Source: a bacterium
GTDB lineage: Bacteria > Patescibacteriota > Minisyncoccia > UBA6257 > JAUSGH01
Length of the DNA stretch: 64,000 nucleotides
NCBI GenBank assembly: GCA_030649055.1
Contig: JAUSGH010000003.1
Location: 354-64,353, forward strand
Reading direction: 5' to 3'
Positions 15,696 to 53,810 of this stretch are shown one piece after another (position 1 is the first letter of the stretch; the number at the start of each line of letters is the position of its first letter). Made by a program: the position numbers and the translations under genes. The notes under the pieces were generated by a model that was not told the origin of the DNA, made no database searches, and saw nothing but the letters and a program-made list of their open reading frames with translations.

Positions 15696-15764
15696 GTAAT
15701 CCTTCGACAGGCTCAGGATATAAATATAATAGTTGGTGAGCTTGTCGAACCACAACGTAAAACA

Positions 15765-16463
15765 TCAACGATCGGCGGCAATCCCAACGATTGCTTTAAT
15801 TTCCTCCGGTTTCAAACTCGCGCCGCCAACGAGCGCTCCGCCAATTGTTTTTTCCTTTAAAAATCCTGCGGCGTTCGCGGCATTGACCGAACCGCCGTAG
15901 AGTACGGGAATCGGCACAGTGATGCCAAGCCGTTGAATCTCCTCTCCTATATATAGTACCATGTTTACCGCATTTTCCGGAGTATCGGCTGCGGCATTTT
16001 TGTTTGTGCTGATGGCCCAGATGGGCTCATATGCTATAACAATTGACATTTGACTATTAACATTTGACTGGCCCACTCGAGATAAACCGATGCGAAGCTC
16101 GCGGGCGACGACTTCTTTCGCCTGACCGGCATCATGTTCCTCGCGCGATTCGCCGACGCAGAGTACCGGAATAAGTCCGGCATCCACCGCCGTCTTCATT
16201 TTATTCGCAATCATCTCGTCGGTTTCACCGAGCCGCCGCCGATCGGAATGACCGACGATAACATACCGCGCACCAAGCGATGCAAGGTCATCCGAAACAT
16301 CCTGCGCACCGAGCTCCGCGTTTTTCAACTCCTTCCCGACGACTTCCAAAAACGTGGGTGGCGGCGCAATCACAAGCCCCTCAATATCCGTTGCGCGCGC
16401 CAACGCAACCGCTTCTTCAACGGTCGCTGGGTGCATTTTCCAGTTAGCAATTATTAGCTTCAT
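15765..16463 (-). CDS. tpiA: triosephosphate isomerase
   Basis: IANWKMH, VGHSDRR and AYEPIWAI motifs. Confidence 0.93.
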   Translation of the reverse strand: MKLIIANWKMHPATVEEAVALARATDIEGLVIAPPPTFLEVVGKELKNAELGAQDVSDDLASLGARYVIVGHSDRRRLGETDEMIANKMKTAVDAGLIPVLCVGESREEHDAGQAKEVVARELRIGLSRVGQSNVNSQMSIVIAYEPIWAISTNKNAAADTPENAVNMVLYIGEEIQRLGITVPIPVLYGGSVNAANAAGFLKEKTIGGALVGGASLKPEEIKAIVGIAADR

Positions 16464-16569
16464 TAGATTATTAGCTCCGTTAGCTTGTTAGCGCGATCCA
16501 TGCAGCTTTGTTGACCTCAATTATTCTCCATGATACCATGCGTACAGCTCTCGGACAAAGGAGGACACA

Positions 16570-17189: not shown

Positions 17190-17690
17190 GCGACGCATCG
17201 GAAGACGCCGCGTGTATTTTCCGCAACATATTGGAGCGATGCGTGAAATTCACGAGTAAAGAAATCGCGAAGTCGGAACAATGGCGCTGTGTGAATCCCG
17301 AAGGCCGCCCCGACCGCGGTCGGGGCGAGACAGAGGTTGAGTTCGCCTTATTCCAAGAACCCATCTCAAAAATCCCTCCCAGGCGCGTTTGTAGCGATTT
17401 CCTCGAATCCGCTAGGCGCGAGGAGGAGGTTGTAACCTCTGGGTTACGCCGACGACGAGCAACGCCGCGGGGCGAGGAAATCGCACGAACCCTTCGGGAT
17501 ACGGCCAATTCCAGCGATTCCTTTGTCGCAACTCCCTCGGAGTATCCAGAGGATACACCTTCGGTCGTCGCTCCTCGGACTCGCTGGAATTGACTCGTAT
17601 CGCGACGGGAGGGATTTTTGAGATGGGTTCCAACTTCGCGGTTTTTTACGAGAAAAATTTCCGCGAGCAGAAATCGTTGCGGAAAATACA
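17190..17690. repeat. large nested inverted-repeat (rod-like) element, most likely non-coding
   Basis: 21-bp perfect IR at 17197-17217 and 17667-17687; 24-bp perfect IR at 17358-17381 and 17607-17630; inner IRs at 17495-17520 and 17575-17600; lies between convergent gene ends. Confidence 0.45.
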
Positions 17691-20720: not shown

Positions 20721-20871
20721 AAAACGAGAGAACCCATCTAAAAAATAGACCCCGACGCGATACGAGTCAATTCCGGCGAGTTCTAGGAGCGACGACGAAA
20801 TCGTATCCACTGAGATACCTTGAGGAGGAGCGACAACGAAATCGCCGGAATTGGCCGTATCCCGGAGGGCT

Positions 20872-21915
20872 CTACAAGGTGATCTCCCGTGGCGTAAACG
20901 GATTGTGCAGAATCGCCATATATTTCTCAAAGTTTTCCACGGCAATGCCGGTCCCGCGCGCAACGCACGTCAGAGGGTCTTCCACAATCGTTGCCGCAAC
21001 CTGTAAATCCTTGCTGATGTATTGGTCAATGCCGCGCAGCAAACTTCCGCCGCCGCAGAGATAAATACCACGCCGCAAAATATCCCCTGCAAGCTCCGGG
21101 GGGGTCACCTCAATCACCTCTTTGATGGACTCGGTGATAATCTTCAACGACTTACTGATTGCCGCGCGTGCTTGCGCGTCACGCACCACAACCTCATTCG
21201 GAAGTCCGGTTGCCAAATCTCTTCCTCGCACCGTCATCTCCATTTTCTGCTCCAAAGGAATTGCGGAGCCGATGGTGACCTTGAGTTCCTCCGCCGTCGG
21301 GTCGCCGATCGCGAGACGAAATTCATCACGCACAAAACGGATAAGATCTTCGTTCAGCCGGTCACCCGCGATTTTCAGACTTTTCGCGACAACCGTTCCG
21401 CCCATGGAAATAACGGCGATCTCTGTTGTGCCTCCGCCAATGTCCACAATCAAGTTCGCGGTCGGTTCATCCACCGGCAACCGGGCGCCCAAGGCAGCGG
21501 CAATGGATTCTTCGATAATAAACGCCTTGTGTATTCCGGCACCCACCACCGCGTCCTCAACGGATTTTCGTTCCACTTCAGTCAAGTTGCTCGGCGCGCC
21601 AACAACCGCGCGGCGGTAATGCCACAACTTTCTAGTGTCCACGGTACGCATAAAATGGCGGAGCATTTCTTGTGTTGTTTCAAAATCCGAGATAACGCCG
21701 TTGGTGAGCGGCCGCACTACATTCACGTGTGCCGGCGTGCGGCCAATCATCTTGCGCGCTTCATCGCCCGCGGCAACCACGGCGCCGGTTTTATTATTTA
21801 TGGCAACCACCGACGGCTCATTCACCACAATGCCGCGCCCCGCGACGTATACAAGAGTATTCGCCGTGCCAAGGTCAATGCCGATATTTTTCGTGAAATA
21901 GTCTAAAAACTTCAT
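20872..21915 (-). CDS. mreB: rod shape-determining protein MreB (actin-like)
   Basis: GIDLGTANTLVY and the rest of the actin-fold motifs. Confidence 0.95.
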   Translation of the reverse strand: MKFLDYFTKNIGIDLGTANTLVYVAGRGIVVNEPSVVAINNKTGAVVAAGDEARKMIGRTPAHVNVVRPLTNGVISDFETTQEMLRHFMRTVDTRKLWHYRRAVVGAPSNLTEVERKSVEDAVVGAGIHKAFIIEESIAAALGARLPVDEPTANLIVDIGGGTTEIAVISMGGTVVAKSLKIAGDRLNEDLIRFVRDEFRLAIGDPTAEELKVTIGSAIPLEQKMEMTVRGRDLATGLPNEVVVRDAQARAAISKSLKIITESIKEVIEVTPPELAGDILRRGIYLCGGGSLLRGIDQYISKDLQVAATIVEDPLTCVARGTGIAVENFEKYMAILHNPFTPREITL

Positions 21916-21944: not shown

Positions 21945-23204
21945 TCAGGAAATATTTATACGCTGAGCCTGTCGAAGCGCTACCATAGATGCAACAAGTT
22001 TCACCTTGCCGCTCGCGCGTTCCTTCACTTCAACTTTCTTCGCCGCGACGGTTTTTGCGCTCACGAGGCACCGCAACGGAACGCCGAGCAAATCCGCATC
22101 CGCGAATTTTTCTCCGGCGGAAACCTCGCGATCGTCAAAGAGCACCTCAACGCCGCGCTTTGTTAAATCCGCATACAGTTTTTTCGCCGCCGCACGCTCT
22201 TTCGCGCCGTCACCAAGAAGTACCAAATGCACGTCAAATGGAGCGATGGACTTCGGCCAAATAATACCGCGCTCATCGTGGCTCACTTCAACAACCGTCG
22301 CGACAATACGCGAAGGGCCGATGCCATACGAACCCATAACCACCGGCCGCGACACGCCGTCCTTATCCAAAAACTTTACGCCGAAGGCATCCGCGTAGCG
22401 CGTACCGAGCGGAAACACATTCGCAACCTCAATCGCATTGCCACTCAAAATTTTTCCTGCGCACTTCGGACACTTGCCGCTACCGGACATCATGTCGGGG
22501 CTCGCCACCTCTTTATTCTGCGCGTAGTGACATTTTTCACAATAATACACCGTGTCCTCGCCCGAAGGCGCGAGCACTTGAAACTCGTGCGTGTACTCTT
22601 TTGTGAAAGCGCCCCCCGCGGCTTCCGTAATGAGATACTTCAAACCGATGCGCTTCATAATTTTTTCATACGCTTTGATGACCGTCGCGTAATACGCATC
22701 CAAACCCGCTTTGTCGGCATGGAAACTGTAAAGGTCTTTCATCATAAACTCTCTGCCCCGAAGCAAACCATTTTTCGCGCGTGGTTCCGAACGGAACTTC
22801 GTCTGAATCTGGTACACCGCCTTCGGCAAATCTTTATATGATTGGATGAAATGCTGGGCGATTGCAGTGATGACCTCCTCGTGCGTCCAGCCCAAACCAA
22901 ACTCTTCGCCGGCTTGCGTCTTCAATTTATAGATCACGTCAACATCCCAGCGCTTGGATTTCTCCCAATACTCTTTCGCAACCAGCGCATTCATAAGCAA
23001 CTCCTCCGCGCCAATGGCGTTCATTTCTTCACGAACGATGTTGACCACCTTCTGCAACACGCGAAATCCCAACGGCAGAAACGTAAATACGCCCGCCGAC
23101 ATTTTGCGGATAAATCCCCCGCGCAAAAGATACTTCGCGTTCACCGCCTCCTCATCCTTCGGGAAGGTCTTTGTTGTTTTTGAAAAAAGTTGAGAGAATA
23201 ACAT
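21945..23204 (-). CDS. proS: prolyl-tRNA synthetase (short form lacking the editing domain)
   Basis: Class II motifs (FRSEPRAKNGLLRGREFMMKD); C-terminal VALRQAQ comes from a repeat copy. Confidence 0.88.
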   Translation of the reverse strand: MLFSQLFSKTTKTFPKDEEAVNAKYLLRGGFIRKMSAGVFTFLPLGFRVLQKVVNIVREEMNAIGAEELLMNALVAKEYWEKSKRWDVDVIYKLKTQAGEEFGLGWTHEEVITAIAQHFIQSYKDLPKAVYQIQTKFRSEPRAKNGLLRGREFMMKDLYSFHADKAGLDAYYATVIKAYEKIMKRIGLKYLITEAAGGAFTKEYTHEFQVLAPSGEDTVYYCEKCHYAQNKEVASPDMMSGSGKCPKCAGKILSGNAIEVANVFPLGTRYADAFGVKFLDKDGVSRPVVMGSYGIGPSRIVATVVEVSHDERGIIWPKSIAPFDVHLVLLGDGAKERAAAKKLYADLTKRGVEVLFDDREVSAGEKFADADLLGVPLRCLVSAKTVAAKKVEVKERASGKVKLVASMVALRQAQRINIS

Positions 23205-23379
23205 CGCGGCACAAACGATTAAAATATTGCCTGAGCCTGTCGAAGGCCTTACCTAGTCCCTGCTCCGATTGTAGCAATATCAAAAAGAAAAGCAAATGAG
23301 ATAAAGTGTCTGAAAAATGTAACAGCTCGCATCGGTATGAACCCGATGCGAGCCGTAACGCTGAACTTGTCCCGAGACC

Positions 23380-25086: not shown

Positions 25087-25178
25087 GGCTCAAGATTTAT
25101 TAGCTTCGTTAGCTTTTTAGCTTCATTAGAGGAAAGCCTGTTGCCTAACGAAGCTAACCATCTAATGAAGCTGACCGC

Positions 25179-25724
25179 CTATTCCTGAATCTCCTTCACC
25201 TTCGCCGCCAAATGCTCCTCAATGCTTTTATTCGCCTTATCCACCGCCTCCTGCGCTTTCTTTCTCAGCGCAAACTTTTCATTTTCCGAAATCGCTTTTT
25301 CCTTTTCGGCGCGCTCTATTTTTTTCATCTCCTCGTCGCGCGCTCCGCGGATGCTGATGCGATGTTCTTCACAAACTTTTTTCGCGAGCTTTTCTATTTC
25401 AGATCTTCGTTCGCCGGTCATCGCAGGCAGCGTGACCCGCACAATTGTTCCCTGCACCGCGACTGAAAGTCCCAAGTTCGCCGCCTCAATGCCTTTCGCA
25501 ATTGCCGCGAGTGAATGCTGATCCCACGCGTTGACCAACAAGTCGCGCGGCGGAGCGATGGTGATGGACCCGAGCTGCTTCACCGACATGTGCGCGTCCA
25601 TATACTCCACCGCGACATCTTCGATCATTTTCGGCGACGGACGATTGGTGCGCAACCCCGAAAGTTCATTCTTCAAATTCTCCCCGATACGTTTTAATTT
25701 TTCCTCAAAATCTTTGATGTCCAT
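25179..25724 (-). CDS. frr: ribosome recycling factor
   Basis: Full-length RRF similarity. Confidence 0.93.
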   Translation of the reverse strand: MDIKDFEEKLKRIGENLKNELSGLRTNRPSPKMIEDVAVEYMDAHMSVKQLGSITIAPPRDLLVNAWDQHSLAAIAKGIEAANLGLSVAVQGTIVRVTLPAMTGERRSEIEKLAKKVCEEHRISIRGARDEEMKKIERAEKEKAISENEKFALRKKAQEAVDKANKSIEEHLAAKVKEIQE

Positions 25725-25813
25725 ATATATGGATAGTAACGGATGATCGCCCGCGGCGCAATTTCAAAAATCCGCTATACTAAAAACAGTGATTGTTTGT
25801 AAGGAGTACTGCT

Positions 25814-26443
25814 GTGTTTGATTTGCCGTATGCAGCACCGACGCTCTGGCCGAAATTCGAGCATATGCTCGGCTCTTACACGCCGGCAGAAATGATCCAA
25901 GCCTGCCTCTGCCACACAGGCCTTGGCGCGTGGATCGCGGTGTTCGTCACCGTCGCCACCATCGTCATGCTCCGCTGGGCGTGGAAGCGCGCCGCACCGG
26001 TCGAGACGGTGATCGCGCTGACCGAGGAGGGGCGAACGCGCGAGTACTACGCGCAGTGCGTCAAACACGTCGCGATAATGGCGCTACTTGGCGGCCTCGC
26101 AGGAAACGCCGTGGATATTGACCACATCATCGCCAAACTCCTCTTCCCTTGGTATACCTGCGGAAGACTCTTGCACACGGCGGGGTTTCACATCGGCGCG
26201 TTCTTCCTCGTCGTTATCTACGCTCGGCTCGCGGCTTTCGTTATGGGAGGCGTGCTTGCGCACTTCCGCTGGTCGCCGATCGCAAGCATCGGCGACGGAA
26301 TCATCGGCCTTGCGGCGCATGGATGGGACATAAAGGATCCACGATTCCTGTGGAAATTCACCACGTACTACACGTGGCGCACCGTCGCTGCGTGGGTAGT
26401 CGTGACACACGTCTTAGAGGACTACGCATGGAACTTGTTCTAG
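25814..26443 (+). CDS. hypothetical polytopic membrane protein
   Basis: aaggag then a 7-nt spacer then GTG; followed by a terminator of the gggctcttcactttttag type. Confidence 0.55.
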   Translation: MFDLPYAAPTLWPKFEHMLGSYTPAEMIQACLCHTGLGAWIAVFVTVATIVMLRWAWKRAAPVETVIALTEEGRTREYYAQCVKHVAIMALLGGLAGNAVDIDHIIAKLLFPWYTCGRLLHTAGFHIGAFFLVVIYARLAAFVMGGVLAHFRWSPIASIGDGIIGLAAHGWDIKDPRFLWKFTTYYTWRTVAAWVVVTHVLEDYAWNLF

Positions 26444-26880
26444 CGACTCGCGAGAGCCCGGTCTGCCTCGGCAGCCGGGCTCTTCACTTTTTAGAATCAA
26501 AGGGCGTGAAACGCCTACATTATCATCACTTCACCACCTCCCTAATACGACGCAGGAAGCGTAGGCGTGCTTTCGAGCGAGCATGTTGGAGCGATACTAT
26601 ACACGACTGATACATTCCGCCGCGCTATTCTTTTTCGTAACCTAAGTGCAGCCGAGTCAGAAAACCGTGAGTGAAGGGCGGATTTTTTGACCATGCACGA
26701 ATGAGACGGAAAATCCTCCCGCCTGCGGGCGGGAGGAGGAACGCGAGCCTCGTTCGTGCATTCAAAAAATCAACCGCAGCGAACGGGCTTTCTCGAGGCG
26801 GAGCGGGTAAGAAAAAGAATGGAGCGGCGGAATGAGCCGGACCCGTGAACAATACTATGCAGGGCTTTCGCGAGGTGGAT

Positions 26881-27624
26881 TCACGCATCCAACAACGTCT
26901 CCAACTGCAACTTCCTGTTCGTATTAAAATCCTGCATCTTCGCCCACCTCTCCGTCAGCCGCCCCATGAGCCGCACATGTTTCACCGGATCCTTGCGGCA
27001 CTCTATCAACACATGCCGCACGAAATGCGCGAGTAGCTGTTCGACGCGCGAAAGCTCCTCGGCTTCCAGCACATCCGCAATAATAACTCTCCGCTCCGCG
27101 ACAGCGCCCGCAACAAATTTCTTTGCCAACTGCGCCGCTGTTTTTTCGGCGCCCGAAAGCTCCTCCTCTCCCTCGCTCCCCACATATATTTTTTGGAAAC
27201 GCGAAGCAAGTGGCGCCACAATTACCCTCGGGTCAAGCGCACTCATCAAAATTAGTCCGTGCTCCGGCGGCTCCTCAACGGTTTTCAAAAACGCGTGCTG
27301 CGCCTCGGTAGACAGCGCATCCGCGCCATTCACAAAAACCGTTTTCCGCGCCGCGCGCAGCGGTTTTTGCCACAAAAAAGTAATTGCCTCCCGCACACTT
27401 CCGATGCTGATAGTTCCGCCGTCACCGGCCCCAAATTCACGGCTATCAATACACAAGCCATCGCACGAGGTCTTTCCGCATTCAAGGAGCGCGATAATCG
27501 CGCGGCAGACATTAGCAATCGCGGTCGGCGATTCGCCCCAAAAAAGATACGCGTGGCCCAACCGCCCTTCCGCAATATGGACCTTAAAATCGCTTATTAA
27601 GGAGTGTGCGCTTGTAGACATCAA
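26881..27624 (-). CDS. holB: DNA polymerase III delta' subunit
   Basis: GHAYLFWG and FLKTVEEPPEHGLILM motifs. Confidence 0.82.
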   Translation of the reverse strand: MMSTSAHSLISDFKVHIAEGRLGHAYLFWGESPTAIANVCRAIIALLECGKTSCDGLCIDSREFGAGDGGTISIGSVREAITFLWQKPLRAARKTVFVNGADALSTEAQHAFLKTVEEPPEHGLILMSALDPRVIVAPLASRFQKIYVGSEGEEELSGAEKTAAQLAKKFVAGAVAERRVIIADVLEAEELSRVEQLLAHFVRHVLIECRKDPVKHVRLMGRLTERWAKMQDFNTNRKLQLETLLDA

Positions 27625-28594
27625 GGTGGTTCAAAATAAGTCCGGCGCCTTTGGCAACGCAGAATAACGGCTCCTCCGCGATATACGTTTCCACTCCGGT
27701 CATACGCTTAAAGAAGTCATCGATGCCACGCAAATGTCCGCCGCCGCCCGAAACGAGAATACCCTGCTCCATAATATCCGCCACAAGTTCCGGTGGAGTG
27801 CTATTAAACACATTCTGCACCGTAGTTGCGATTTCGATAAGCAACGGATTCAAACTTTCGGCGATTTCATTGGAATTCAGCACGATGTCGCGCGGCAATC
27901 CGTACACCAAGTCACGGCCGCGAATCTGATATTCCAATTTTTCCTTTGACGGCAGCGCCGCCCCGATTTGAATTTTCACCGCCTCCGCGGTTTGCTCACC
28001 GATGGAAAGCGAATACTTGCGTTTCACGTAATCAATGATGGCCTGGTCAAACTTATTTCCCGCGACTTTTAAGCTCGCCCACGACACAATGCCGCCGAGT
28101 GAAATCACCGCGACCTCGGAGGTACCACCGCCGATGTTGATAATCATATTGCCGGAGTGATGATTGATGGTGATACCCGCGCCTAAGGCGGCCAAAATCG
28201 GCTCTTTCACAATATAGACTTCTTTCGCTCCGGCCTCACGTCCGGCGTTGATCACCGCGCGACGCTCAACCGAAGACACGCCCGCGGGAACGGAAAGCAC
28301 GACTTCCGGTTTGACGATATTAAATGAGCCTGTTGCTTTCGCGATAAAATACTTGAGCATCGCGCGCGTAATGTAGTAGTCGGCAATGACGCCGTCTTTC
28401 ATCGGACGGTACGCGACAATATCATCCGGCGTGCGGCCAATCATATCTTTTGCTTCGCGGCCAACGGCAAGCACGGTATTATCCGGCACGCTCATCGCGA
28501 CGATCGTCGGCTCATTGATGACAAACCCTTTGCCCGGCACAAACACGATGGTGTTCACCGTGCCGAGGTCAATACCTATTTTCCGTGTAAACAT
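27584..28594 (-). CDS. MreB/Mbl-like actin homolog (second paralog)
   Basis: GIDLGTVNTIVF and full actin-fold motifs; paralogous to the mreB at 20872..21915. Confidence 0.9.
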   Translation of the reverse strand: MFTRKIGIDLGTVNTIVFVPGKGFVINEPTIVAMSVPDNTVLAVGREAKDMIGRTPDDIVAYRPMKDGVIADYYITRAMLKYFIAKATGSFNIVKPEVVLSVPAGVSSVERRAVINAGREAGAKEVYIVKEPILAALGAGITINHHSGNMIINIGGGTSEVAVISLGGIVSWASLKVAGNKFDQAIIDYVKRKYSLSIGEQTAEAVKIQIGAALPSKEKLEYQIRGRDLVYGLPRDIVLNSNEIAESLNPLLIEIATTVQNVFNSTPPELVADIMEQGILVSGGGGHLRGIDDFFKRMTGVETYIAEEPLFCVAKGAGLILNHLDVYKRTLLNKRF

Positions 28595-28597
28595 AGT

Positions 28598-28636
28598 TCA
28601 ATAAAACAATAAAGCAATAAAGCAATAAAGCAAAGC
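28598..28636. repeat. tandem 8-bp repeat (GCAATAAA)n
   Basis: Seen directly; inverted relative to the array at 29015..29090. Confidence 0.8.
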
Positions 28637-28641
28637 GTTCG

Positions 28642-29004
28642 TTACCGTTCTATCCTTTGGTCCAGTCCACGTATTTCCGCCCAAAGCATCGCGCCAATTT
28701 CATCCGCAATGACAGCGCCGCGTTCGTAGTCTTTAGCAGAAATGTACTTTTCAACAAAAGCAAAATGAAGAAGGTACCGGGATTCTTTGAAAGAACCGAA
28801 TGCTATTTCAAGAAAATTCAGACGTACGAGAGGTTTCCGCCGGGCATATCCCTCAATATAATTTAAAACAACAGAAAGGGTGGCACGCCGAAACTGCGAC
28901 GTAACACCGAAAAGCTCTTCTCTAGGAAAGTTTTTTGTAATTGCGTAAACAAGGTGAGTATAGTCATCCATTTTACCTTTAAGTTTTTCCTGAAAATCAT
29001 TCAT
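28642..29004 (-). CDS. four-helix-bundle protein (TIGR02436-like; the family encoded by 23S rRNA intervening sequences)
   Basis: ITKNFPREELFGVTSQFRRATLSVVLNYIEGYAR matches the family hallmark. Confidence 0.8.
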   Translation of the reverse strand: MNDFQEKLKGKMDDYTHLVYAITKNFPREELFGVTSQFRRATLSVVLNYIEGYARRKPLVRLNFLEIAFGSFKESRYLLHFAFVEKYISAKDYERGAVIADEIGAMLWAEIRGLDQRIER

Positions 29005-29014
29005 CGTCTTGCAT

Positions 29015-29090
29015 GATTGTTTTTGTATTTTTGTTTCGTTGTTTTGATGCTCTGATGCTTTATTGCTTCGTTGTTTTATTGCTTTTATGC
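29015..29090. repeat. degenerate tandem 8-bp repeat (TTGCTTTN)n
   Basis: Seen directly. Confidence 0.75.
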
Positions 29091-30380
29091 CTTCCGCACA
29101 ATGTCCGCGCCAAGCAGCCGCAACCTTTCCTCAATCCGTTCATACCCGCGGTCAATTTCTTCAATGCCGGAAATAACCGACTCGCCCGTGGCGGTCAATG
29201 CCGCGATGATGTGCGCGATGCCGCTCCGCAAATCACGCACCGTAACATTCGCCCCGTGAAGCGGCGTCGGCCCGTTGATCACCGCGCTGTGATTAAAACC
29301 TTTGCCATTAAACCGGCACGTCAGTTCACCGAGACACTTGGAAAAAACAGTGATGTACGCGCCCATGGCATTCAAGTCCGCGGTGTAACCAAAACGATCG
29401 TCATACACGGTTTCATGAATAATTGAGGCACCCATCGCCTGCGTCAAAAGCACCGCGAACGGCTGCTGCCAATCGGTCATAAATCCCGGGTGCGGATCGG
29501 TTTCAATTTCGGCGGCTTTAAGTTCGCTGGAGCGCCAAAAACGGATGCCACCATCTTTCACTTCATATTCCCCGCCGACCCTGCGCAACGTACTTAAAAA
29601 TGTACTCAGGTGATCTTGCACCGCTCCGCGCACGAACACGTCACCATCGGTCGCAACCGCAAGGCACGCGAACGACACCGCTTCGTTCCGATCCGGAATC
29701 ACGGCGTGAGTAACGCCGCGGAGTTTTTTGACGCCGTCAATATGAAACGCGCGATTGGCGCCAAGTTCAATGATGGCTCCCATTTTTTGGAGCATCTTCA
29801 CCAGCTCCTTCACCTCCGGCTCACGCGCGGCATTATAAATGCTCGTTCTCCCCTCGGCCAGCACCGCCGCTAATATGATGTTCTCCGTCGCGCCGACCGA
29901 TGGATAGCGCAGCCGGATTTTTGTCCCATGCAAACCGCCTTTCGCCGTAGCAACATAACGCTCCCCCGCAATTTCAATTGAGGCACCCATCGCGCGAAGC
30001 GCCTCAAGGTGAATATCCACCGGCCGCGCGCCGATTTTATCTCCCCCTAAAAACGGGATCTCGGCCTCGCCAACGCGCGCAAGCAAAGGACCAAGCGCAA
30101 GTATCGGAATGCGATTTTTTCTTGAAAGCGAGCCGACGCGAGAGTTTTTAATCTCCGGCGTTTTAATGCGAAGCGTTTTTCCTTCACGCACAATTTCGCT
30201 TCCGATCATGCGACAAAGCTCTTCGGTAATCTCAAGCTCACCGATGTCCGGCACATTGGAAAACACGCATTCCTCGTCGGTAAGAAGCGACGCGATGAGC
30301 ACTTTGCTCGCGCCGTTTTTCGCGCCCGAAAGCGCAATTTCTCCTTTCAATTTTTTCCCGCCGTGGATGATGAATTGCAT
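29085..30380 (-). CDS. murA: UDP-N-acetylglucosamine 1-carboxyvinyltransferase
   Basis: Full-length MurA similarity; start set at MQFIIHGG, since the upstream ORF extension is repeat-derived. Confidence 0.93.
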   Translation of the reverse strand: MQFIIHGGKKLKGEIALSGAKNGASKVLIASLLTDEECVFSNVPDIGELEITEELCRMIGSEIVREGKTLRIKTPEIKNSRVGSLSRKNRIPILALGPLLARVGEAEIPFLGGDKIGARPVDIHLEALRAMGASIEIAGERYVATAKGGLHGTKIRLRYPSVGATENIILAAVLAEGRTSIYNAAREPEVKELVKMLQKMGAIIELGANRAFHIDGVKKLRGVTHAVIPDRNEAVSFACLAVATDGDVFVRGAVQDHLSTFLSTLRRVGGEYEVKDGGIRFWRSSELKAAEIETDPHPGFMTDWQQPFAVLLTQAMGASIIHETVYDDRFGYTADLNAMGAYITVFSKCLGELTCRFNGKGFNHSAVINGPTPLHGANVTVRDLRSGIAHIIAALTATGESVISGIEEIDRGYERIEERLRLLGADIVRKA

Positions 30381-30384
30381 AGCA

Positions 30385-30469
30385 ACGCAATAAAGCAACA
30401 AAGCAATAAAACAATGAATCAAGGCTCCCACTCTTGCTTTCTTGCTTCTTTGTTTTTTTGCTTTTTTAG
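30385..30469. repeat. inverted pair of 8-bp tandem repeat arrays, (GCAATAAA)n then (TTGCTTT)n
   Basis: Seen directly. Confidence 0.75.
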
Positions 30470-30600
30470 TTTACGTGGTCATTCGCCGTTCTCCGCCTCC
30501 AGCATACAACGCAAAGGTAAAAAATACCACCCCAGCAATTGTTCTTTTTATTCAACCTCTTTATAATAAAGTCAGCATTGAACTTATAGGAGACGCTCGC

Positions 30601-32949: not shown

Positions 32950-33016
32950 ACAATAAAAAACATTACAAACTTATTCGCATTATTAAAATTAAATTCGCAT
33001 TATTCGCGATTACTCC

Positions 33017-34840: not shown

Positions 34841-35827
34841 ATGACCAAGCCCATCTTAATCTCCGGGATTCAGCCGAGCGGAAAACTCCACCTCGGAAAT
34901 TACCTCGGCGCCCTCAAGAACTTCGTTGAGCTGCAAGCCTCCGGCAAATACAACTGCTTATTCTTTATTGCCGACCTGCACTCACTCACAGAAACCTACG
35001 ATCCGGAGATGAAACCCGAACAGATTCTTGACCTCGCGGCGAGCTATCTTGCGTTGGGCATAGACCCTAGAAAATCAACGGTCTTTGTCCAATCGCAGGT
35101 GCCACAGTCAACCGAGCTTGCGTGGATTTTGGGAACACTCACGCCGTTCGGCGAATTGCGCCGGATGACACAATTCAAGGACAAGGCGGAATCACAGGAA
35201 GAAAACGTGAACGTCGGCCTCTTCACCTACCCCGTGCTGATGGCGGCGGATATTTTGCTCTACAACGCCGCATTCGTCCCCGTGGGCGAAGACCAACTCC
35301 AGCACTTGGAACTCACGCGCACCCTGGCACGGAAATTCAACAGCCGCTATGGCGAAACATTTATGGAACCAAAACCGCTCATGACTTCTGTCCCCCGCTT
35401 GATGAGCTTGAGTGACCCGACAAAGAAAATGTCCAAGTCACAGCCGGACGGCTGCCTTTTCATTGACGATGAACCTGCGACAATTGAAGTAAAACTGAAG
35501 CGCGCAGTGACAGACTCCGGAAGCGAGGTGAAGTATGACGAGCAAAACAAACCGGGTGTTTCAAATCTCTTGCGCATCATGAACGCGCTCTCGGGAAAAT
35601 CCGTTCCCGAGCTTGTTAAGGCGTTCGCCGGAGAAAACTACAGTGAATTCAAACACGCGCTTGCCGATCTTGTCAGCGACCACTTCGTGGCGTACCGCAA
35701 AAAGTACGCAGCACTCATCAAGAACCCTGCGCCGATAAAACGCGCCCTCGCCGCCGGCCAGAAGAAAGCCGCGAAACTCGCCACCACGAAACTCGCTGAA
35801 GTGAAAAAGAAAATCGGCCTCGTTTAG
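34841..35827 (+). CDS. trpS: tryptophanyl-tRNA synthetase
   Basis: HLGNYLGA (HIGH) and KMSKS. Confidence 0.95.
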   Translation: MTKPILISGIQPSGKLHLGNYLGALKNFVELQASGKYNCLFFIADLHSLTETYDPEMKPEQILDLAASYLALGIDPRKSTVFVQSQVPQSTELAWILGTLTPFGELRRMTQFKDKAESQEENVNVGLFTYPVLMAADILLYNAAFVPVGEDQLQHLELTRTLARKFNSRYGETFMEPKPLMTSVPRLMSLSDPTKKMSKSQPDGCLFIDDEPATIEVKLKRAVTDSGSEVKYDEQNKPGVSNLLRIMNALSGKSVPELVKAFAGENYSEFKHALADLVSDHFVAYRKKYAALIKNPAPIKRALAAGQKKAAKLATTKLAEVKKKIGLV

Positions 35828-35906
35828 TTCCTGAGCTTGTCGAAGGACTACCTTATCCCAAGCCGCGCTTGACACACGCGAGCCGGCTTTGTTAAAGTTT
35901 TTTTAC

Positions 35907-38012: not shown

Positions 38013-38160
38013 CGGCAACGCATACAGCCCGGGAGGTTATGAACCTCCCGGGCTGTTCACTTTTTTACAACAGCAAGACGTCTTGTTAAAGCCGCGTAGG
38101 GATGCTACAGTGTAGCCAGCTTGTGACAGGAAATTCGAACGTCTTTTGTAGGAGGCACGA

Positions 38161-38845: not shown

Positions 38846-38955
38846 CAGACGCAAACGACAGCCCGAGGGGTTCCATACCTCCCGGGCTGTTCACTTTTTC
38901 ACCGGCTTTTGTTACTATAGTTACAGTTCGCAAATTCGTAGTCCACTTTTTTAAG

Positions 38956-39459
38956 GAGTCCGTCGTGAAACAGCGCACAGGAGTGATAGCGGTGGCAGGA
39001 CTTGTCATCCTCATCACTATGGTCATCCTGACCTTCCCGAAGTTCAAACGGGACGTGGAGAGTCTCGGTGAGCCACAACGGAAAATTCAGCAGGAGCTCG
39101 CGGAACTGAAAAAGCTGGTCGCGCCCGAACCGCCGCACTGCGTGTTCGATGATGTCCCTGCGAAGCTCCAGAAGGGTATGACCGAAGACGAAGCGCTCGC
39201 GGCAGTCAAGTCCTGCAACGTCCCAGGAAAGCCGAAGCAGGACTTCTCCCGCGACGAGGTGAACCCCTTGACGGGAGAGAACATCCGCAGCAGAGAGATC
39301 CTCTATGGAATGTACATCATCAGCGGACGGAACGACTGGATGATGGAGCTTGGCCTCTACTTCGCCGACGGCAAACTCTACGACGTGGCCCGCAGGAGTT
39401 GGCGCAGCATGGAATGGAAGCGGACCCATTGGCAACCGGAGATTCCGAAGAACAAGTGA
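38956..39459 (+). CDS. membrane-anchored protein with BamE-like motif, array member 4
   Basis: aaggagtccgtcGTG; QKGMTEDEALAAV; terminator at 39469..39509. Confidence 0.6.
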   Translation, partial: ESVVKQRTGVIAVAGLVILITMVILTFPKFKRDVESLGEPQRKIQQELAELKKLVAPEPPHCVFDDVPAKLQKGMTEDEALAAVKSCNVPGKPKQDFSRDEVNPLTGENIRSREILYGMYIISGRNDWMMELGLYFADGKLYDVARRSWRSMEWKRTHWQPEIPKNK

Positions 39460-39574
39460 TGCACGCAACAGCCCGAGAGGTATGGAACCTCTCGGGCTGT
39501 TCACTTTTTTACAAGCTCTGTTACGATAGTTATAGTTCGCAATTTGCGACCTCTCTCCAAACGGAGGACTGACC

Positions 39575-40159: not shown

Positions 40160-40264
40160 TGCTGTCGAAGCACAAACAGCCCGCAGGCATTTCGCCTCGG
40201 GCTGTTCACGTTTTCACCCGCACCCCACACTTTGCGCCACGCTTCTCCTCCACTAATCGCACAC

Positions 40265-40306
40265 AACTGCTTCCTAACTTCACGATCGTGAAGTTAGGAA
40301 GCAGTT
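40265..40306. repeat. 42-bp perfect palindrome aactgcttcctaacttcacgatcgtgaagttaggaagcagtt (copy 1)
   Basis: Seen directly; identical copy at 40946..40987. Confidence 0.9.
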
Positions 40307-40342: not shown

Positions 40343-40927
40343 TCAAATCACTTGCCGCAATGTACCGCTCTTGCTGATTTCGAAAATCTCAACGAGCCGA
40401 AGAAGGCCAAGTTTTTCAAGCTCGCCGATGAATGACTCGGGTAACAGCACCTTCCCCACCCAAACGCTCTTCTGTAACATGATAAATCCCAACGTACGCA
40501 GCACATCGCGCAGCCAATCGCGTTTCCGACGTTCGCGTTCCGGAATATCAAAAACGACAATGTTCAGACGAGGGGCTGCTTTGACCACCGCGGAATCAGC
40601 TAAACGTTGCTTCGCGGTACGAAATTGAAGCGCCACCTTACGTTGTAGCCCTTTTTCTGTTGTATGCCACCGCGTATGCGCTTGTGATACGTCGCTTACA
40701 ATGAGTCCCTGTTGCCGCAATTTACAGACGGCATTATAGATCTGACGGCGCGAGAAATCTTTCACGGCGCGCATTTCACGCTCCGCGACACGCTTCCCGA
40801 GCTCGCGCCGCATGCGGCCATATGAGGCACCATAACCAGCGGACAAAAAGGCGCCGGCAAAATCACCGATGCCTCCGACAAATCCGGTGATACTCTCTAA
40901 AATTTTTAACGTGATATCCCCGTTCAT
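40343..40927 (-). CDS. putative transcriptional regulator: N-terminal winged-helix, C-terminal PaaX_C/Cas2-like fold
   Basis: RQIYNAVCKLRQQGLIV wHTH-like; IVVFDIPERERRKRDWLRDVLRTLGFIMLQKSVWVGK. Confidence 0.5.
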   Translation of the reverse strand: MNGDITLKILESITGFVGGIGDFAGAFLSAGYGASYGRMRRELGKRVAEREMRAVKDFSRRQIYNAVCKLRQQGLIVSDVSQAHTRWHTTEKGLQRKVALQFRTAKQRLADSAVVKAAPRLNIVVFDIPERERRKRDWLRDVLRTLGFIMLQKSVWVGKVLLPESFIGELEKLGLLRLVEIFEISKSGTLRQVI

Positions 40928-40945
40928 TGTTTTTCATCCTACCAC

Positions 40946-40987
40946 AACTGCTTCCTAACTTCACGATCGTGAAGTTAGGAAGCAGTT
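40946..40987. repeat. 42-bp perfect palindrome (copy 2)
   Basis: Identical to 40265..40306. Confidence 0.9.
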
Positions 40988-41490: not shown

Positions 41491-41558
41491 AAATGTATTC
41501 CTTCGACAGGCTCAGGAAATAATTTTATTATGCGCTGAGCTTGTCGAAGCGCTACCTT

Positions 41559-44500
41559 TTACTTCTTCCGTATCCCCAGCCATACCTCATTTTCTTCGAC
41601 TTTAGTTGAAATCTCGGCATCAAACTTTTCGCTCTTCTTAAATTCAACTTCCGACAAGCTGGTTTCGTTTTTGAAATCCTTAAGGCGCGCCTCAATAACG
41701 GCCTTAAGCGCCGGCGGAAACATTACCGAAAGAATGGCGCGCTCGCCCGGCTTGTAGTCCGCTGTCTGACGCAACTCCTGCACCATGCGCACGAGCTCAC
41801 GGAAAAGTCCCTCATTGCGCAACTCCGGCGTAATTTTTGTATCAAGCTCCACGTCCCCCGCCATGCTTGAATCAATAACAATTTCTTTCACGTTCACCTC
41901 ATCTTTGAGAATATCCAGAAGTTCGCTTGCTTTCTTGCTTTCTTGCTTTATTGCTTTATTGATTCTGAGCGCCGCCAGCGGTTGCCGCACCTTAATCCCC
42001 GCCTCCGCCCGTTTTGCCAAACCGATACTCGCGAGCTTACGTACCTCCTCCATCGCGGCAACAAGCGCGTCGTCCGAAAGTTTTGCATCCGTCTCCGGCC
42101 AATCCGTGAGATGAACCGAGCTTTGTTTTTTTGCTTTATTGCTTTCTTGATTCATTGAAGCATACAGCGCCTCCCCAAAAAACGGCGTAAATGGCGCGAT
42201 AAGCTTAGAGAGGGTACCGAGCACCTCGCGCAGCGTAGCGGAGGCGGCTTCATAGTCGCCTTTTTCCGGACGTTGAAATCTGCGCCGCGAACGCCGGATG
42301 TACCACCGCGAAAGATCGTCAACAAACAATTCAATCGCCCGCGCCGCCTCGTTCATTTCATAGGAGTCAAGTTTTGCGGTCACGACACCGATAAGCGACT
42401 GGAGCTTCGCCAAAATCCAGCGATCTAGCACATTAACAGATGACAATTGACCTTCGACAATTGACTTAGCCCCATACGTGTCTAAAAATACGAACGAGTT
42501 ATATAAAATCGCGAAAAATCGCCGGTAGGTTTTCAATAAGTCATTCTCATCGTACCGCTTCGGCTCACCCGCGGGATTCACGGTATAGAAATACCAACGC
42601 ACAACATCCGCACCGTATTTCTGAATCATCGCCATCGGTTCCACGACGTTGCCTTTGGATTTGGACATTTTGAGCCCGTTTTTATCCAGCACGTGTCCCA
42701 GCGAAACCACATTTTTATAGGGCGCGCCGCGTCCCAAAAGCACCGACACGGCAAGGAGCGTGTAAAACCAGCCACGCGTCTGGTCAATTCCTTCAGTAAT
42801 GTAATCCGCCGGAAACAGCGTGCCGTTGTCCACTTCTTTTTTATGCTCAAACGGATAATGCCACTGCGCATAGGGCATCGCTCCCGAGTCAAACCACACA
42901 TCCGCCACTTCTTTCACTCTTGTCATGCGCGATTTGCACTTCGCACAACGCAAATACAGCTCGTCCACATACGGCCGGTGCACATCAAGATTCCCCGCCG
43001 CGTCATATGGATAGTTACGCAACACAAGCGACCGATAATTGCCGGGTTGGATGTAGTCAAGCGCTAAGACTTCCTCATCAGAGAGTCCGTTCAGTTTTCC
43101 TTCAAGTACCCACAACGGATCACCGTGGCTTACCACCACAATACGCTTACCTACATACTTCGCATTCAACTCCCGCAAAAATGCGAGCATGCGCGCTTGT
43201 ACCTCGTGGAGATTTTCACCTCCTTCGGGCGTTTGTGTAAATTCCAATACCGATCTCCCACCAAAAATCGCCCGATACTCCTCAACGGTTTTGCCGTTAT
43301 AGACGCCGGTATTTATTTCACCGAGACGATCATCGTAGATGACAGGAATCTTGCCGAGCGTAGCTAAAAGCACCTGCACCGTTTGCCTAGTACGGTGATA
43401 GGGCGAGGCAACAATAAGGTCAATTTTTTCTTTCTTTAATTTCTTCGCGACACCTTCAACGTCCGCAATACCGCGCTTCGTAAGCTCTGATTTCTTTTCT
43501 ATTTTAGTACCTGAAGCAATCCACCCTTCTACGTTATGCGTCGCCTCGCCATGCCGCACGGCAAAAAATGTATTTCTATTAAATGCGAATTCATCCAAGT
43601 CGGCAAACGAAGAAATCACGCGCGTTGCGTCGCATTTTTCGCACTCCCAGATCGGCAAGGGAGTCCCCCAATACCGCTCGCGCGAAATCGCCCAATCTTT
43701 CACCTCGCGGATCCACTCGCCAAAACGCCCTTCCTTCAAATGCGCCGGCACCCAATTGATTTCTTTATTCGCCGCGAGAAGTTTTGCGCGCATCTTGCTC
43801 ATCTCAATAAACCAGGAGGTCCGCGCGAAGTAGATCAAAGGGCTTGAACAGCGCCAGCAAAACGGATAGTCGTGCTCCACGCTCCCCTCGGAATACATAA
43901 GACCACGCGACACTAAGTCCACGACGATGTCTTTGTCGGCCGATTTAATAAACCGCCCGCTGCCCGGAAGGTTGCCCAGTACCATACCGCGCTCGTCAAT
44001 GGTGCGCGGGATTTCATCGGTGGTCAGTTTCCACGTTTCGGAAATAAGCCGATAGTCATCTTCGCCGAACGCCGGGGCAATGTGCACCAATCCCGTTCCC
44101 TCGCCGGTTTGCACGAAATCGGCAGAAAGAACGGCATAAAATTGCTTTGTTGCTTTGTTGCTTTGTTGCTTTATCGGATAGAGCCCTTCATACCGAAGTC
44201 CCACCAACTTTTTCCCCAAAAGCTGTTCCACGGCCTCCGGTACCATGCCATTGACCGTCGGCGGCGCGTTGTACGACCAAAGATATTCATCACCGACTTT
44301 ATATTTGGTGTAGGTCAGTTTCGGATTGACTGCCACCGCGACATTCGACGGCAGTGTCCACGGAGTGGTGGTCCATACTAATAGAAATTCTTTATTCGCT
44401 GAGCTTGTCGAAGCGCTACCTTTATTTCTGATTTTAAACTTCACATACACCGACGGATCCTTCGTCAGCTTATATGCTTGCGCAAGCTCGTGGCTGGAAA

Positions 44501-45098
44501 GCGAAGTTTGACACCGCGGGCACCACGGCACAACTTTGTACAACTTCTTCAATAAACCTTTTTTCGCAATCTGCGCCATCACCCACCAAAGCGATTCCAC
44601 AAAATCATTCGCGTAGGTAATATACGGATGCTCGGAATCAATCCAAAAACCGATACGGTCACTGAACCGCTCCCATTCATTTTTATATTTCCAGATTGAC
44701 TCCTTTGCCCGCGCGTTAAACGCCGCGATACCAAACGTTTCAATCTCTTGTTTGTTTTTTAATCCAAGCGCTTTTTCCACCTCAATCTCAACGGGAAGAC
44801 CATGCGTGTCCCACCCCGCGCGCCGAGGAACATAAAACCCGCGCATGGTTTTGTAGCGCAGAATAATATCCTTAAACGTCCGCGTTTCCGCGTGCCCGAT
44901 GTGCGGCAAACCATTCGCCGTCGGCGGTCCTTCAAAAAACACGAAGTGTTTTTTACCCTGCCTGCCCGCCGAAGCCTTGGCGGAGGCGGGAGCCTGTCGA
45001 AGGGCTACCGATTTTTTGAAAATCTCATTCTCCGCCCAAAACTTAAGGACTTTCTCTTCCAACTCGGGCAGATTGAATTGCTTGAGACCTCTTAGCAT
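41559..45098 (-). CDS. ileS: isoleucyl-tRNA synthetase with an inserted histidine-phosphatase (PGAM-like) domain and in-frame repeat insertions
   Basis: PPTANGLPHIGHA, GWDTHGLPVE and KMSKS; RHGEATHN...VSHGD domain between the zinc knuckle and WFDSG; VALRQAPASAKASAGRQG insert. Confidence 0.88.
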   Translation of the reverse strand: MLRGLKQFNLPELEEKVLKFWAENEIFKKSVALRQAPASAKASAGRQGKKHFVFFEGPPTANGLPHIGHAETRTFKDIILRYKTMRGFYVPRRAGWDTHGLPVEIEVEKALGLKNKQEIETFGIAAFNARAKESIWKYKNEWERFSDRIGFWIDSEHPYITYANDFVESLWWVMAQIAKKGLLKKLYKVVPWCPRCQTSLSSHELAQAYKLTKDPSVYVKFKIRNKGSASTSSANKEFLLVWTTTPWTLPSNVAVAVNPKLTYTKYKVGDEYLWSYNAPPTVNGMVPEAVEQLLGKKLVGLRYEGLYPIKQQSNKATKQFYAVLSADFVQTGEGTGLVHIAPAFGEDDYRLISETWKLTTDEIPRTIDERGMVLGNLPGSGRFIKSADKDIVVDLVSRGLMYSEGSVEHDYPFCWRCSSPLIYFARTSWFIEMSKMRAKLLAANKEINWVPAHLKEGRFGEWIREVKDWAISRERYWGTPLPIWECEKCDATRVISSFADLDEFAFNRNTFFAVRHGEATHNVEGWIASGTKIEKKSELTKRGIADVEGVAKKLKKEKIDLIVASPYHRTRQTVQVLLATLGKIPVIYDDRLGEINTGVYNGKTVEEYRAIFGGRSVLEFTQTPEGGENLHEVQARMLAFLRELNAKYVGKRIVVVSHGDPLWVLEGKLNGLSDEEVLALDYIQPGNYRSLVLRNYPYDAAGNLDVHRPYVDELYLRCAKCKSRMTRVKEVADVWFDSGAMPYAQWHYPFEHKKEVDNGTLFPADYITEGIDQTRGWFYTLLAVSVLLGRGAPYKNVVSLGHVLDKNGLKMSKSKGNVVEPMAMIQKYGADVVRWYFYTVNPAGEPKRYDENDLLKTYRRFFAILYNSFVFLDTYGAKSIVEGQLSSVNVLDRWILAKLQSLIGVVTAKLDSYEMNEAARAIELFVDDLSRWYIRRSRRRFQRPEKGDYEAASATLREVLGTLSKLIAPFTPFFGEALYASMNQESNKAKKQSSVHLTDWPETDAKLSDDALVAAMEEVRKLASIGLAKRAEAGIKVRQPLAALRINKAIKQESKKASELLDILKDEVNVKEIVIDSSMAGDVELDTKITPELRNEGLFRELVRMVQELRQTADYKPGERAILSVMFPPALKAVIEARLKDFKNETSLSEVEFKKSEKFDAEISTKVEENEVWLGIRKK

Positions 45099-45564: not shown

Positions 45565-45763
45565 CGGCTTTACCTCCTCGTTTGGTTGTTGTTCTGGTGA
45601 TTTCATTACAAATTGAATTATAAAAAAGTCTTCACTTAAAGTCAATAGCTCGGCTTAAGCAGCCGCAACTCAATATCGTTCAGTTTTAACTGTAGAATTT
45701 CAATATGCCTTTTTCCATTCGCATTATTACCGAGCCAAATTCGCGTTATTCGCGATTACTCCC

Positions 45764-51241: not shown

Positions 51242-51282
51242 AAAATGCGCAGGGCGCATTTTGCCCTGAGCCTGTCGAAGGG

Positions 51283-53745: not shown

Positions 53746-53810
53746 ACACTAAATCCGCTTCCCATTCGCATTATTACCGAGCCCAATTCGCATCATTCGC
53801 GATTACTCCA

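Follow-up and report, generated by a model that had tools for sequence, protein, structure and literature searches.

A four-helix-bundle gene between inverted octamer arrays in the murA-mreB spacer of a Patescibacteria genome: a probable relative of 23S rRNA intervening sequences

Some bacterial 23S rRNA genes are interrupted by intervening sequences (IVSs) that carry an open reading frame (ORF) for the S23p protein, e.g. in Coxiella burnetii, Leptospira, Xanthomonas and Brucella (PMC4990558). In Coxiella the IVS has a 28-bp stem of terminal inverted repeats, its excision by RNase III has been shown experimentally, two to three tandem copies of GACAGAT that vary in number by strain lie just upstream of the ORF, and the ORF itself is reported to be decaying and probably untranslated (PMC4990558). 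The S23p structure is a pentameric toroid (PMC4990558, citing Lin et al. 2006). Both the IVSs and the very large PF05635 family were recognised decades ago, but no function and no means of spreading have been assigned to either. The 64,000-nt stretch of Patescibacteria DNA analysed here (the window; positions 354 to 64,353 of GenBank contig JAUSGH010000003.1) holds a four-helix-bundle (4HB) gene of this family between murA and mreB, set between inverted arrays of an 8-nt unit. Like the 23S IVSs, this cassette has its PF05635 ORF in sense orientation, co-stranded with murA and mreB, within the loop of a predicted stem of terminal inverted repeats. Unlike them, it lies not in a 23S rRNA gene (at helix 9, 25 or 45, as IVSs do) but in the spacer from the murA stop to the mreB start, and of the 80 related loci described below, the 40 scanned for rRNA include none in such a context; its arms are octamers with an A-N-C-A core and not heptamers as in Coxiella; its protein, unlike the Coxiella ORF product, is under strong purifying selection; and gene-less copies of its arms are dispersed in the genome, also within coding sequence. 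The suggestion of the first-pass annotation that this is a cassette whose gene is typical of the rRNA IVSs holds, with the correction that the element does not lie in rRNA here. The IVS class with its S23p ORF, terminal inverted repeats and heptamers is already known; the non-rRNA operon site, the octamer arms with a conserved core, the strong selection on the protein and the dispersed gene-less arms, some of them in frame, appear to be new. A search of the full-text literature, with most subscription journals outside its scope, returned neither array-flanked 4HB cassettes in Patescibacteria nor a link between S23p and the cyanobacterial repeats considered next.

Cyanobacterial short tandemly repeated repetitive (STRR) sequences are heptamer hairpins between co-transcribed genes, described as of unknown function and proposed to stabilise transcripts or couple translation (PMC2670836). 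The window arrays resemble them in belonging to genome-specific families of short tandem units and in forming intergenic hairpins, and 4HB genes of cyanobacterial plasmids are flanked by such heptamers; they differ from STRRs, which are described as intergenic heptamers of heterocystous cyanobacteria, in having an 8-nt unit and a host of another phylum, in the Parcubacteria group. A second likeness is with repetitive extragenic palindromes (REPs): a gene for a REP-associated tyrosine transposase (RAYT), an HUH/Y1 transposase with a known catalytic mechanism, is flanked by inverted short repeats that are not internally tandem, and gene-less doublets (REPINs) are dispersed intergenically. The cassette shares with REPIN-RAYT systems a single gene between inverted short repeats together with dispersed gene-less hairpins, and differs in that its arms are internally tandem and its gene, which matches PF05635 and PF22296 only, encodes a 120-aa helical bundle without a known catalytic motif. 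Rickettsia palindromic elements are selfish palindromes of ~100-150 bp, inserted whole and in frame at surface sites of essential proteins, and no gene is known to be associated with them; unlike these, the window genome has mostly single 32-nt arms, and whole hairpins are found in the IleS loop of other lineages. Finally, Borg tandem repeats (PMC9879509) are fast-evolving and yield low-complexity or disordered protein stretches as well as intergenic arrays. In contrast to the Borg repeats, which have an independent origin at each site, the window unit, whose 8 nt are not a multiple of three bases, recurs as a fixed four-unit module at ten sites and is tied to a cassette gene.

The murA-mreB cassette and its relatives

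On the gene strand the order is murA stop codon, A-rich arm, 4HB ORF, U-rich arm and mreB ATG (Table 1). The upstream arm, of double length with about 7 in-phase A-N-C-A units, runs from the murA stop codon to some 10-40 nt short of the 4HB ATG; the downstream arm runs from 7 nt past the 4HB stop to 4 nt short of the mreB ATG. The best ungapped alignment between the two arms is 34 nt, and in the predicted RNA fold of 29120->28570 they pair around the entire ORF in both the minimum free energy (MFE) and the centroid structures. The protein matches PF05635 (23S_rRNA_IVP) at 80.7 bits (cutoff 33.8, E 1.1e-22) over profile positions 10-105 of 106, and the solved S23p of Xanthomonas campestris, XCC0516 (PDB 2GSC), with a phmmer E of 2.3e-9; it further matches PF22296 (bAvd) at E 6e-10, exactly at the 40-bit cutoff, and has 510 homologues at E<=1e-5. 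Both the inverted pair around this gene and the assignment of the gene to a family typical of 23S rRNA IVSs, as put forward from the letters alone by the first-pass annotation, are therefore confirmed. A search for promoters and terminators gave no candidate in the spacers on either side of the 4HB gene, an Rfam scan of the window returned a tmRNA and two tRNAs only, and the rest of the window consists of ordinary housekeeping genes.

The closest relative found (locus L002) has an IleS 89% identical to that of the window, synteny over 23.5 kb and 86.5% nucleotide identity in murA; the homologues of the window IleS are from Parcubacteria/Patescibacteria, near Candidatus Harrisonbacteria. In L002 murA is followed by mreB across a 189-nt spacer that lacks the 4HB gene and holds a gene-less hairpin of a different short unit, AAATCCNA. 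Among metagenomic relatives, about 35 keep mreB next to murA (MurA 57-69% identical); they too lack the 4HB gene at this place, with spacers mostly of 9-100 nt, and gene-less array hairpins of other unit types occupy the spacer in three loci (L154, L087 and L084). On these comparisons the 4HB cassette at murA-mreB is an insertion.

Two cassettes 12 kb apart on one Moraniibacteriota contig (L047 and L073) encode proteins 97% identical and have neighbours without homology; their DNA is homologous over both arrays and the ORF between them, with boundaries exactly at the outer array ends (A-rich on one side, T-rich on the other), and the copy number of the upstream array differs between them. Array-ORF-array is the unit of duplication. 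The same arm type is also found in unrelated contexts in the pairs L021/L032 (proteins 91% identical) and L048/L067 (86%), and over the family protein identity and arm 6-mer similarity are correlated (Mantel r 0.31, a value reached by 0 of 2000 permutations). Reading the inverted arrays as the terminal repeats of a small cassette gains support from the absence of the cassette in L002, from the paralogue boundaries and from the recurrence of the layout in 63 of 77 homologous loci, as described below. In a set of 30 pairs, dN/dS is 0.03-0.16 wherever synonymous sites are unsaturated, which places the 4HB protein under strong purifying selection. In three context-unrelated pairs the 45-nt flanks diverge less (p 0.07-0.41) than synonymous sites (pS 0.25-0.61), and the sequence further out is unrelated. 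Because dN/dS is low and the arms diverge more slowly than synonymous sites, both protein and arms look functional. The median pI of the cassette proteins, 9.2, marks them as basic.

The wider family was sampled by searching an alignment of 30 close homologues against 185,579 species genomes, which yielded 80 loci, mostly labelled Patescibacteria, 77 of them with enough flank for analysis; the taxon labels come in part from third-party metagenome-assembled genomes, and ORF starts were called mechanically. In nearly all 77 an A-rich period-8 array is seen by eye to run up to the ATG, with its reverse complement from the stop codon on, although the units vary among cassettes (e.g. CTTGAAAC, CATGTAAC, AAGAAAGC, AAGAAATC, ACATAACA and CAATTAAG). 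Self-identity of the flanks is 0.60 at lag 8, 0.48 at lag 7 and 0.38-0.41 at most other lags, versus 0.38-0.39 in 180 control ORFs. An ungapped inverted-repeat score, set against control ORFs, exceeds the control 95th percentile in 63/77 and the 99th in 53/77; in the 63, the arms have a median of 30 nt (the commonest size being four units), are 87% complementary, and are set off from the ATG by a median of 7 nt and from the stop by 6 nt. Upstream flanks hold more A than T in 71/77 cassettes. Comparison of units by iterative rotation alignment with a shuffled-unit control, which replaced a canonical-rotation naming that had given confusing results, yields the consensus nnnnA[A/G/T]CA with 7.71 bits in total (shuffled units, 6.12 +/- 0.03); the positions ranked second and third carry 1.6-1.8 bits versus <=1.0 in the controls. 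The upstream neighbour is on the cassette strand in 73/76 (p 2e-18 against 0.5), at a median distance of 38 nt, the downstream neighbour in 66/73, and both in 63/72, with a baseline of 0.80 for adjacent ORF pairs. The array-4HB-array layout is thus a property of the family, recurring in diverse Patescibacteria. Flank energies from RNAduplex were tried as a further test and set aside, for they discriminated poorly (median -46 kcal/mol, versus -34 in mismatched loci), every flank being rich in A or U.

The same layout is found beyond this phylum. A tblastn search of plasmids gave 26 records, mostly Nostocales; of the 14 fetched, many have an array-4HB-array anatomy in heptamers, i.e. (GGGAACA)n in L165, (GGGTGTA)n in L166, (AGTCAGG)n in L164 and L167, (GGGGAAA)n in L171 and (GGCAGAG)n in L176 and L177, and most of the fetched 4HB genes sit between co-oriented genes. 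Two 4HB genes lie in cas operons, that of L169 (Pseudanabaena plasmid pPg_01) between cas6 and cas4 and that of L175 (a Picosynechococcus plasmid) between cas10 and cmr3. An Azospirillum locus (L173) is, judged by eye from its rRNA-like flanks, apparently a 23S rRNA IVS, with inverted (GGACAGA/GGACGGA)n arrays around the ORF.

Octamer arrays away from the 4HB gene

Tandem Repeats Finder detects ten period-8 arrays of (TTGCTTTN)n in the window, and the pattern TTGCTTTNTTGCTTT with <=2 mismatches has 33 matches there, whereas 100 dinucleotide-preserving shuffles average 0.90 and never exceed 4; the octamer family reported from the first reading is thus real. Six arrays are coding (in ileS, argS and polX), two surround the 4HB gene and two form a hairpin upstream of murA. 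The A-rich strand of every solo array carries four in-phase A-N-C-A motifs, neither more nor fewer, at 8-nt spacing, and over all arrays 42/46 units fit A-N-C-A. Because each holds exactly four such units, the solo arrays are fixed modules of ~32 nt, unlike a microsatellite of open-ended length. Over 25642-29801 the window is 100% identical to an independent Logan assembly (SRR13727527), which argues against an assembly artefact, one of the outcomes named beforehand as undoing the finding. A look-up of the 4HB protein matched only the identical contig, hence without variation data, and an exact-protein look-up of MurA gave no matching record.

The six coding arrays all lie inside intact ORFs and encode QQSNKATKQ, NQESNKAKKQ, INKAIKQESKKAS, EKAKKQRNKEAN, QESKKARKQRSK and AKSNEAKKQ*, in agreement with the K/Q/N/A-rich patches described at first. 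The A-rich strand is the sense strand in all six; since the opposite strand would encode L/F/C-rich peptides, selection on the peptide is the simplest explanation of this orientation. The earlier wording that the arrays are inserted in frame is literally true of some, such as that at 55831-55866 of polX, where a thumb loop is about 14 residues longer than in Thermus PolX 3AU2 (the thumb has 75 residues versus 63 positions in the Pfam profile); others occupy a variable linker that was already there and leave its length unchanged. The comparison with alleles of relatives that had been proposed as a check gives a mixed picture in L002. Lengths match at two sites, where the ileS array 41927-41958 is matched by a (GAAGTAA)n heptamer array that differs little in length and the argS array 46045-46076 by a less regular array of the same length. 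At 44142-44173 a different 44-nt element stands between the same conserved flanks, the array 42123-42146 is present with point mutations, and the polX region 54925-54960 has other arrays.

The loop of ileS that holds the array 42118-42157 also carries repeats in two other Parcubacteria. Their IleS proteins (L178, residues 974-997; L179, residues 986-1009) contain whole in-frame 8-mer hairpins with units of GAATCAAG / GAATTAGG type, encoding peptides ...ELNKKHNSSFMIRNS and ELGITNKGNKKSHDSKFMIHNS.

The second inverted pair, noted at first as 30385-30469 beyond murA, proves to be a gene-less hairpin of arms 30383-30414 and 30434-30472, with a folding energy of -23.5 kcal/mol (z -1.9); its left arm read on the minus strand is a U-rich leader directly upstream of the murA ATG (30380). 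L002 has no hairpin upstream of murA. The terminal motif CAATGAATCAAG is common to 30410-30425 of this hairpin and to 42146-42157 of an ileS array, and therefore copies of one element are favoured over independent slippage. A different unit family, TTAGCTNN, also forms a gene-less hairpin, at 25097-25172 (z -4.0 and -4.7), and has a single array at 16450-16500. Viewed as candidate MITE-type non-autonomous elements, the gene-less hairpins of the octamer family share a unit family with the cassette arms, but no target-site duplication is definable for them, because their ends are themselves tandem repeats. The segment 30410-30433 was considered as an internally deleted cassette, with ATGAAT kept after the A-rich arm, and this was judged too weak.

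Table 1. Genes and repeat arms of the window. Chained spans join consecutive units of the octamer; the strand in brackets carries the T-rich sequence (plus, n=8; minus, n=2)
Feature	Span	Strand	Tandem Repeats Finder span	Chained span	Remark
mreB	27584-28594	-			Pfam
Downstream cassette arm (UUGCUUUA)x4, U-rich on gene strand	28598-28636	-	28599-28633	28602-28633 (-)	34-nt alignment with upstream arm
4HB / S23p gene, 120 aa, pI 8.9, stem-loop cargo	28642-29004	-			Pfam PF05635
Upstream cassette arm (AUAAAGCA)n, A-rich on gene strand	29015-29090	-	29023-29085	29039-29086 (+)	Pairs with 28598-28636
murA	29085-30380	-			Pfam
Hairpin left arm, A-rich	30383-30414	+	30383-30415	30383-30414 (-)	Divergent murA / ASCH-gene spacer; without counterpart in L002
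Hairpin right arm, T-rich	30434-30472	+	30434-30472	30434-30465 (+)	19-nt loop between arms
Gene-less hairpin, arms are TTAGCTNN arrays (different unit family)	25097-25172	.			Between frr and M50 peptidase genes
ileS	41559-45098	-			Pfam
Solo arm in ileS, INKAIKQESKKAS	41926-41962	-	41926-41961	41927-41958 (+)	
Solo arm in ileS, NQESNKAKKQ	42118-42157	-	42123-42157	42123-42146 (+)	Terminal motif CAATGAATCAAG
Solo arm in ileS, QQSNKATKQ, four ACAAAGCA units	44138-44176	-	44142-44172	44142-44173 (+)	Hypervariable loop
argS	45764-47356	-			Pfam
Solo arm in argS, EKAKKQRNKEAN	46044-46078	-	46044-46077	46045-46076 (+)	
polX	54931-56724	-			Pfam
Solo arm over last 9 codons and stop of polX, AKSNEAKKQ*	54925-54960	-	54925-54960	54926-54957 (+)	
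Solo arm in polX thumb subdomain, ESKKARKQRSKG	55831-55866	-	55831-55866	55832-55863 (+)	

Interpretation and alternatives

The best explanation, to which a probability of roughly 0.7 is given, is that 28598-29090 is an IVS-type selfish cassette residing in a protein-coding operon, and that the other arrays are gene-less copies of its 32-nt module. The cassette would be transcribed by read-through from murA; its arms are predicted to pair across about 420 nt into a ~30-bp stem around the whole ORF, and RNase III, to judge from the Coxiella IVS, probably cuts the arm duplex. Such cleavage would release the 4HB mRNA and split the murA and mreB messages, making the insertion nearly neutral. Array-ORF-array moves as one unit, since it is present or absent between relatives and its paralogues stand in unrelated contexts. 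The solo arms and hairpins are probably gene-less derivatives of the cassette: of the eight other arrays, one pair would be an empty hairpin and six would be single arms, which may persist in surface loops and linkers of IleS, ArgS and PolX, where the A-rich mRNA strand would give harmless K/Q/S/N/A peptides.

Several points weigh against this explanation. Three of its steps are inferred, namely cleavage by RNase III, transcription by read-through and translation of the 4HB mRNA, and Pfam scans found no transposase, integrase, reverse transcriptase or RNase III (rnc) among window ORFs of at least 70 aa. The whole-region fold 29120->28570 is no more stable than shuffles (z -1.3), the long-range stem alone being distinctive. 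A clear inverted repeat is missing in 14/77 homologous cassettes; the 80 loci were retrieved via two peptide patterns and hence sample one PF05635 subfamily; and the cyanobacterial copy L169 has direct, not inverted, arrays. Two of the coding arrays (ileS 41927-41958 and argS 46045-46076) look like replacement or conversion and not insertion, and the cassette may have landed in pre-existing hairpins instead of being the source of the solo arms.

That possibility leads to the strongest competitor, in which the array hairpins are a host-wide intergenic feature and the 4HB ORF alone is mobile, homing into their loops. Gene-less array hairpins are indeed common, both in the window (30383-30472 and 25097-25172) and, with other units, in the murA-mreB spacers of L002, L154, L087 and L084; the 80 loci contain 29 arrays that do not adjoin a 4HB gene, several of them paired, and cassettes within one genome differ in their arms. 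This order of events is plausible, if clearly the less probable one, in view of the pairs in unrelated contexts that share both their arms and the leader from arm to ATG, of the arm similarity that follows protein identity, and of the median distance of only 6-7 nt between arm and ORF on both sides, a better fit to a fixed unit. An independent origin at each site by slippage, as simple-sequence repeats of the contingency-locus kind or of the disordered-linker kind seen in Borg elements, is improbable: one unit recurs at ten sites in 64 kb and also matches the arms of the 4HB cassette, every solo array has four units, CAATGAATCAAG is shared between a hairpin and an ileS array, and a change by one unit of 8 nt would shift the frame in essential genes. 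Contingency loci vary in unit number between close strains or assemblies, whereas these arrays are unchanged in the independent assembly and match in length at two sites of L002. Local turnover is nevertheless suggested by the other units ((GAAGTAA)n, (CCCTAAA)n and AGCGGTT) that L002 has at corresponding places, by the different 8-mer hairpins in the same IleS loop of other lineages, and by the unequal arm copy number of the paralogues L047 and L073.

Slightly less probable again is that the arrays are regulatory sequence of the flanking genes, such as U-rich leaders, UP-like elements, terminators or attenuators. U-rich arrays do lie 4 nt before the mreB ATG and directly before that of murA, neither with a visible Shine-Dalgarno sequence, a T-rich array lies upstream of the ASCH gene, and the role in transcript stabilisation or translation coupling proposed for STRR hairpins (PMC2670836) offers a precedent. 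The same module is found, however, within coding sequence and, reversed, upstream of the 4HB gene; L002 lacks arrays upstream of murA and mreB; the arrays coincide with no promoter-like or terminator-like site; and a missing Shine-Dalgarno-like tetramer is common here (one is present in 5/77 cassettes versus 24/258 neighbouring ORFs), so that its absence was also dropped as a special feature of the 4HB gene. The bAvd match at its cutoff raises the thought that the 4HB gene encodes Avd, the accessory subunit of a diversity-generating retroelement, with arrays related to the template and variable repeats. Such retroelements are common in Patescibacteria. Yet no window ORF of at least 70 aa has a Pfam match to a reverse transcriptase, no template/variable repeat pair stood out in a repeat scan of the window, and the homologous cassettes are wedged ~40 nt from housekeeping genes on each side, which leaves no room for a reverse transcriptase; this explanation is hardly credible.

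If the cassette explanation is followed further, a more speculative and rather doubtful extension is that the S23p/4HB protein binds A-N-C-A every 7-8 nt in single-stranded RNA or DNA and controls or promotes the copying of its own arms, in which case array-ORF-array would be a phylum-spanning mobile class without a canonical transposase that includes the 23S IVSs and is the source of gene-less arms and STRR hairpins. TRAP, which binds spaced triplets around its ring, offers an analogy for a putative array-binding toroid. Protein specificity for the variable half of the unit was considered and dropped, since the nearest homologues of the window protein among the 77 carry other unit types; the A-N-C-A core alone was kept as the candidate recognition motif. 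Testable handles are the putative binding of the 4HB protein to (AUAAAGCA)4, and also to (UGCUUUAU)4, and RNase III cutting of the arm duplex. The window locus and its 77 relatives indicate that an IVS-like element also lives outside rRNA, within ordinary operons, and with a strict anatomy, in which the ORF is in sense orientation, the arms abut its start and stop codons, and the tandem structure has a unit of 7-8 nt with a conserved core. Such a habit may explain the '23S rRNA IVP' listed among CRISPR-linked genes in a figure legend of PMC10910872 and the copies within cas operons, and array-flanked 4HB cassettes are a candidate origin of the cyanobacterial STRR repeats. As a warning for annotation, K/Q/S/N/A-rich patches in housekeeping proteins of Patescibacteria can be repeat-derived.

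Other repeats and insertions

A number of further repeats were seen alongside the octamer arrays. Array families turn over fast between the window and L002, whose genes are about 77-92% identical in nucleotide sequence: L002 has 8.6 copies of CCCTAAA, the plant telomere unit, at 176-235 between polX and a NUDIX gene, and inverted (GAAGTAA)n / (CTTACTT)n arrays at 735-772 and about 850-880 around the NUDIX-rplT terminator, which is array-free in the window. Besides the octamer arms, ileS and argS share a second in-frame element of 62 nt, 94% identical between 44949-45010 and 46958-47019, that encodes VALRQAP(A/S)SAKASAGRQG; in L002 the ileS copy is missing (a 30-nt gap) and the argS site has a different sequence of the same length, VALRPASPELQRGEQAQG. 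The IleS of the window (41559-45098) further contains a His_Phos_1 domain at about residues 512-681, an insert found in nearly all of 120 listed Parcubacteria IleS homologues and therefore a widespread clade trait. The N-terminal domain of NusA (12186-13460) has 168 residues versus the 119 positions of its Pfam profile, which suggests an insertion of ~50 residues, possibly repeat-derived.

An eight-copy family with the core CTGAGCCTGTCGAAGGGCTAC (15722-15760, 21949-21987, 23217-23255, 35817-35855, 41521-41559, 44385-44423, 51252-51290 and 61743-61781) overlaps that of the 62-nt element, and some of its copies are inverted pairs next to gene ends. A ~51-nt element (CCATTCGCATTATTACCGAGCC.AATTCGC.T.ATTCGCGATTACTCC) has three copies of 92-96% identity at 32971-33016, 45712-45762 and 53759-53809, of which one abuts the ATG of RNase J, one that of rpmI (in infC-rpmI, a copy conserved in L002) and one lies just past the argS stop. 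A PaaX_M / Cas2-like gene at 40343-40927(-) is flanked by 45-nt perfect palindromes (AACTGCTTCCTAACTTCACGATCGTGAAGTTAGGAAGCAGTT), 100% identical to each other, at 40262-40306 and 40943-40987. A G+C-rich terminator-like hairpin, ACAGCCCGGGAGG...CCTCCCGGGCTGTTCACTTTTTT, trails each of several consecutive small ORFs without a Pfam match (38014-38073, 38848-38907, 39458-39517 and 40198-40221). An inverted repeat of ~140 nt, 86-87% complementary and with arms 3.1 kb apart (17487-17630 versus 20730-20872), brackets the region from PBP2 to mreC, and four tandem paralogous ORFs without a Pfam match at 6983-9996 have in common a conserved 73-nt segment at a spacing of ~790 nt.

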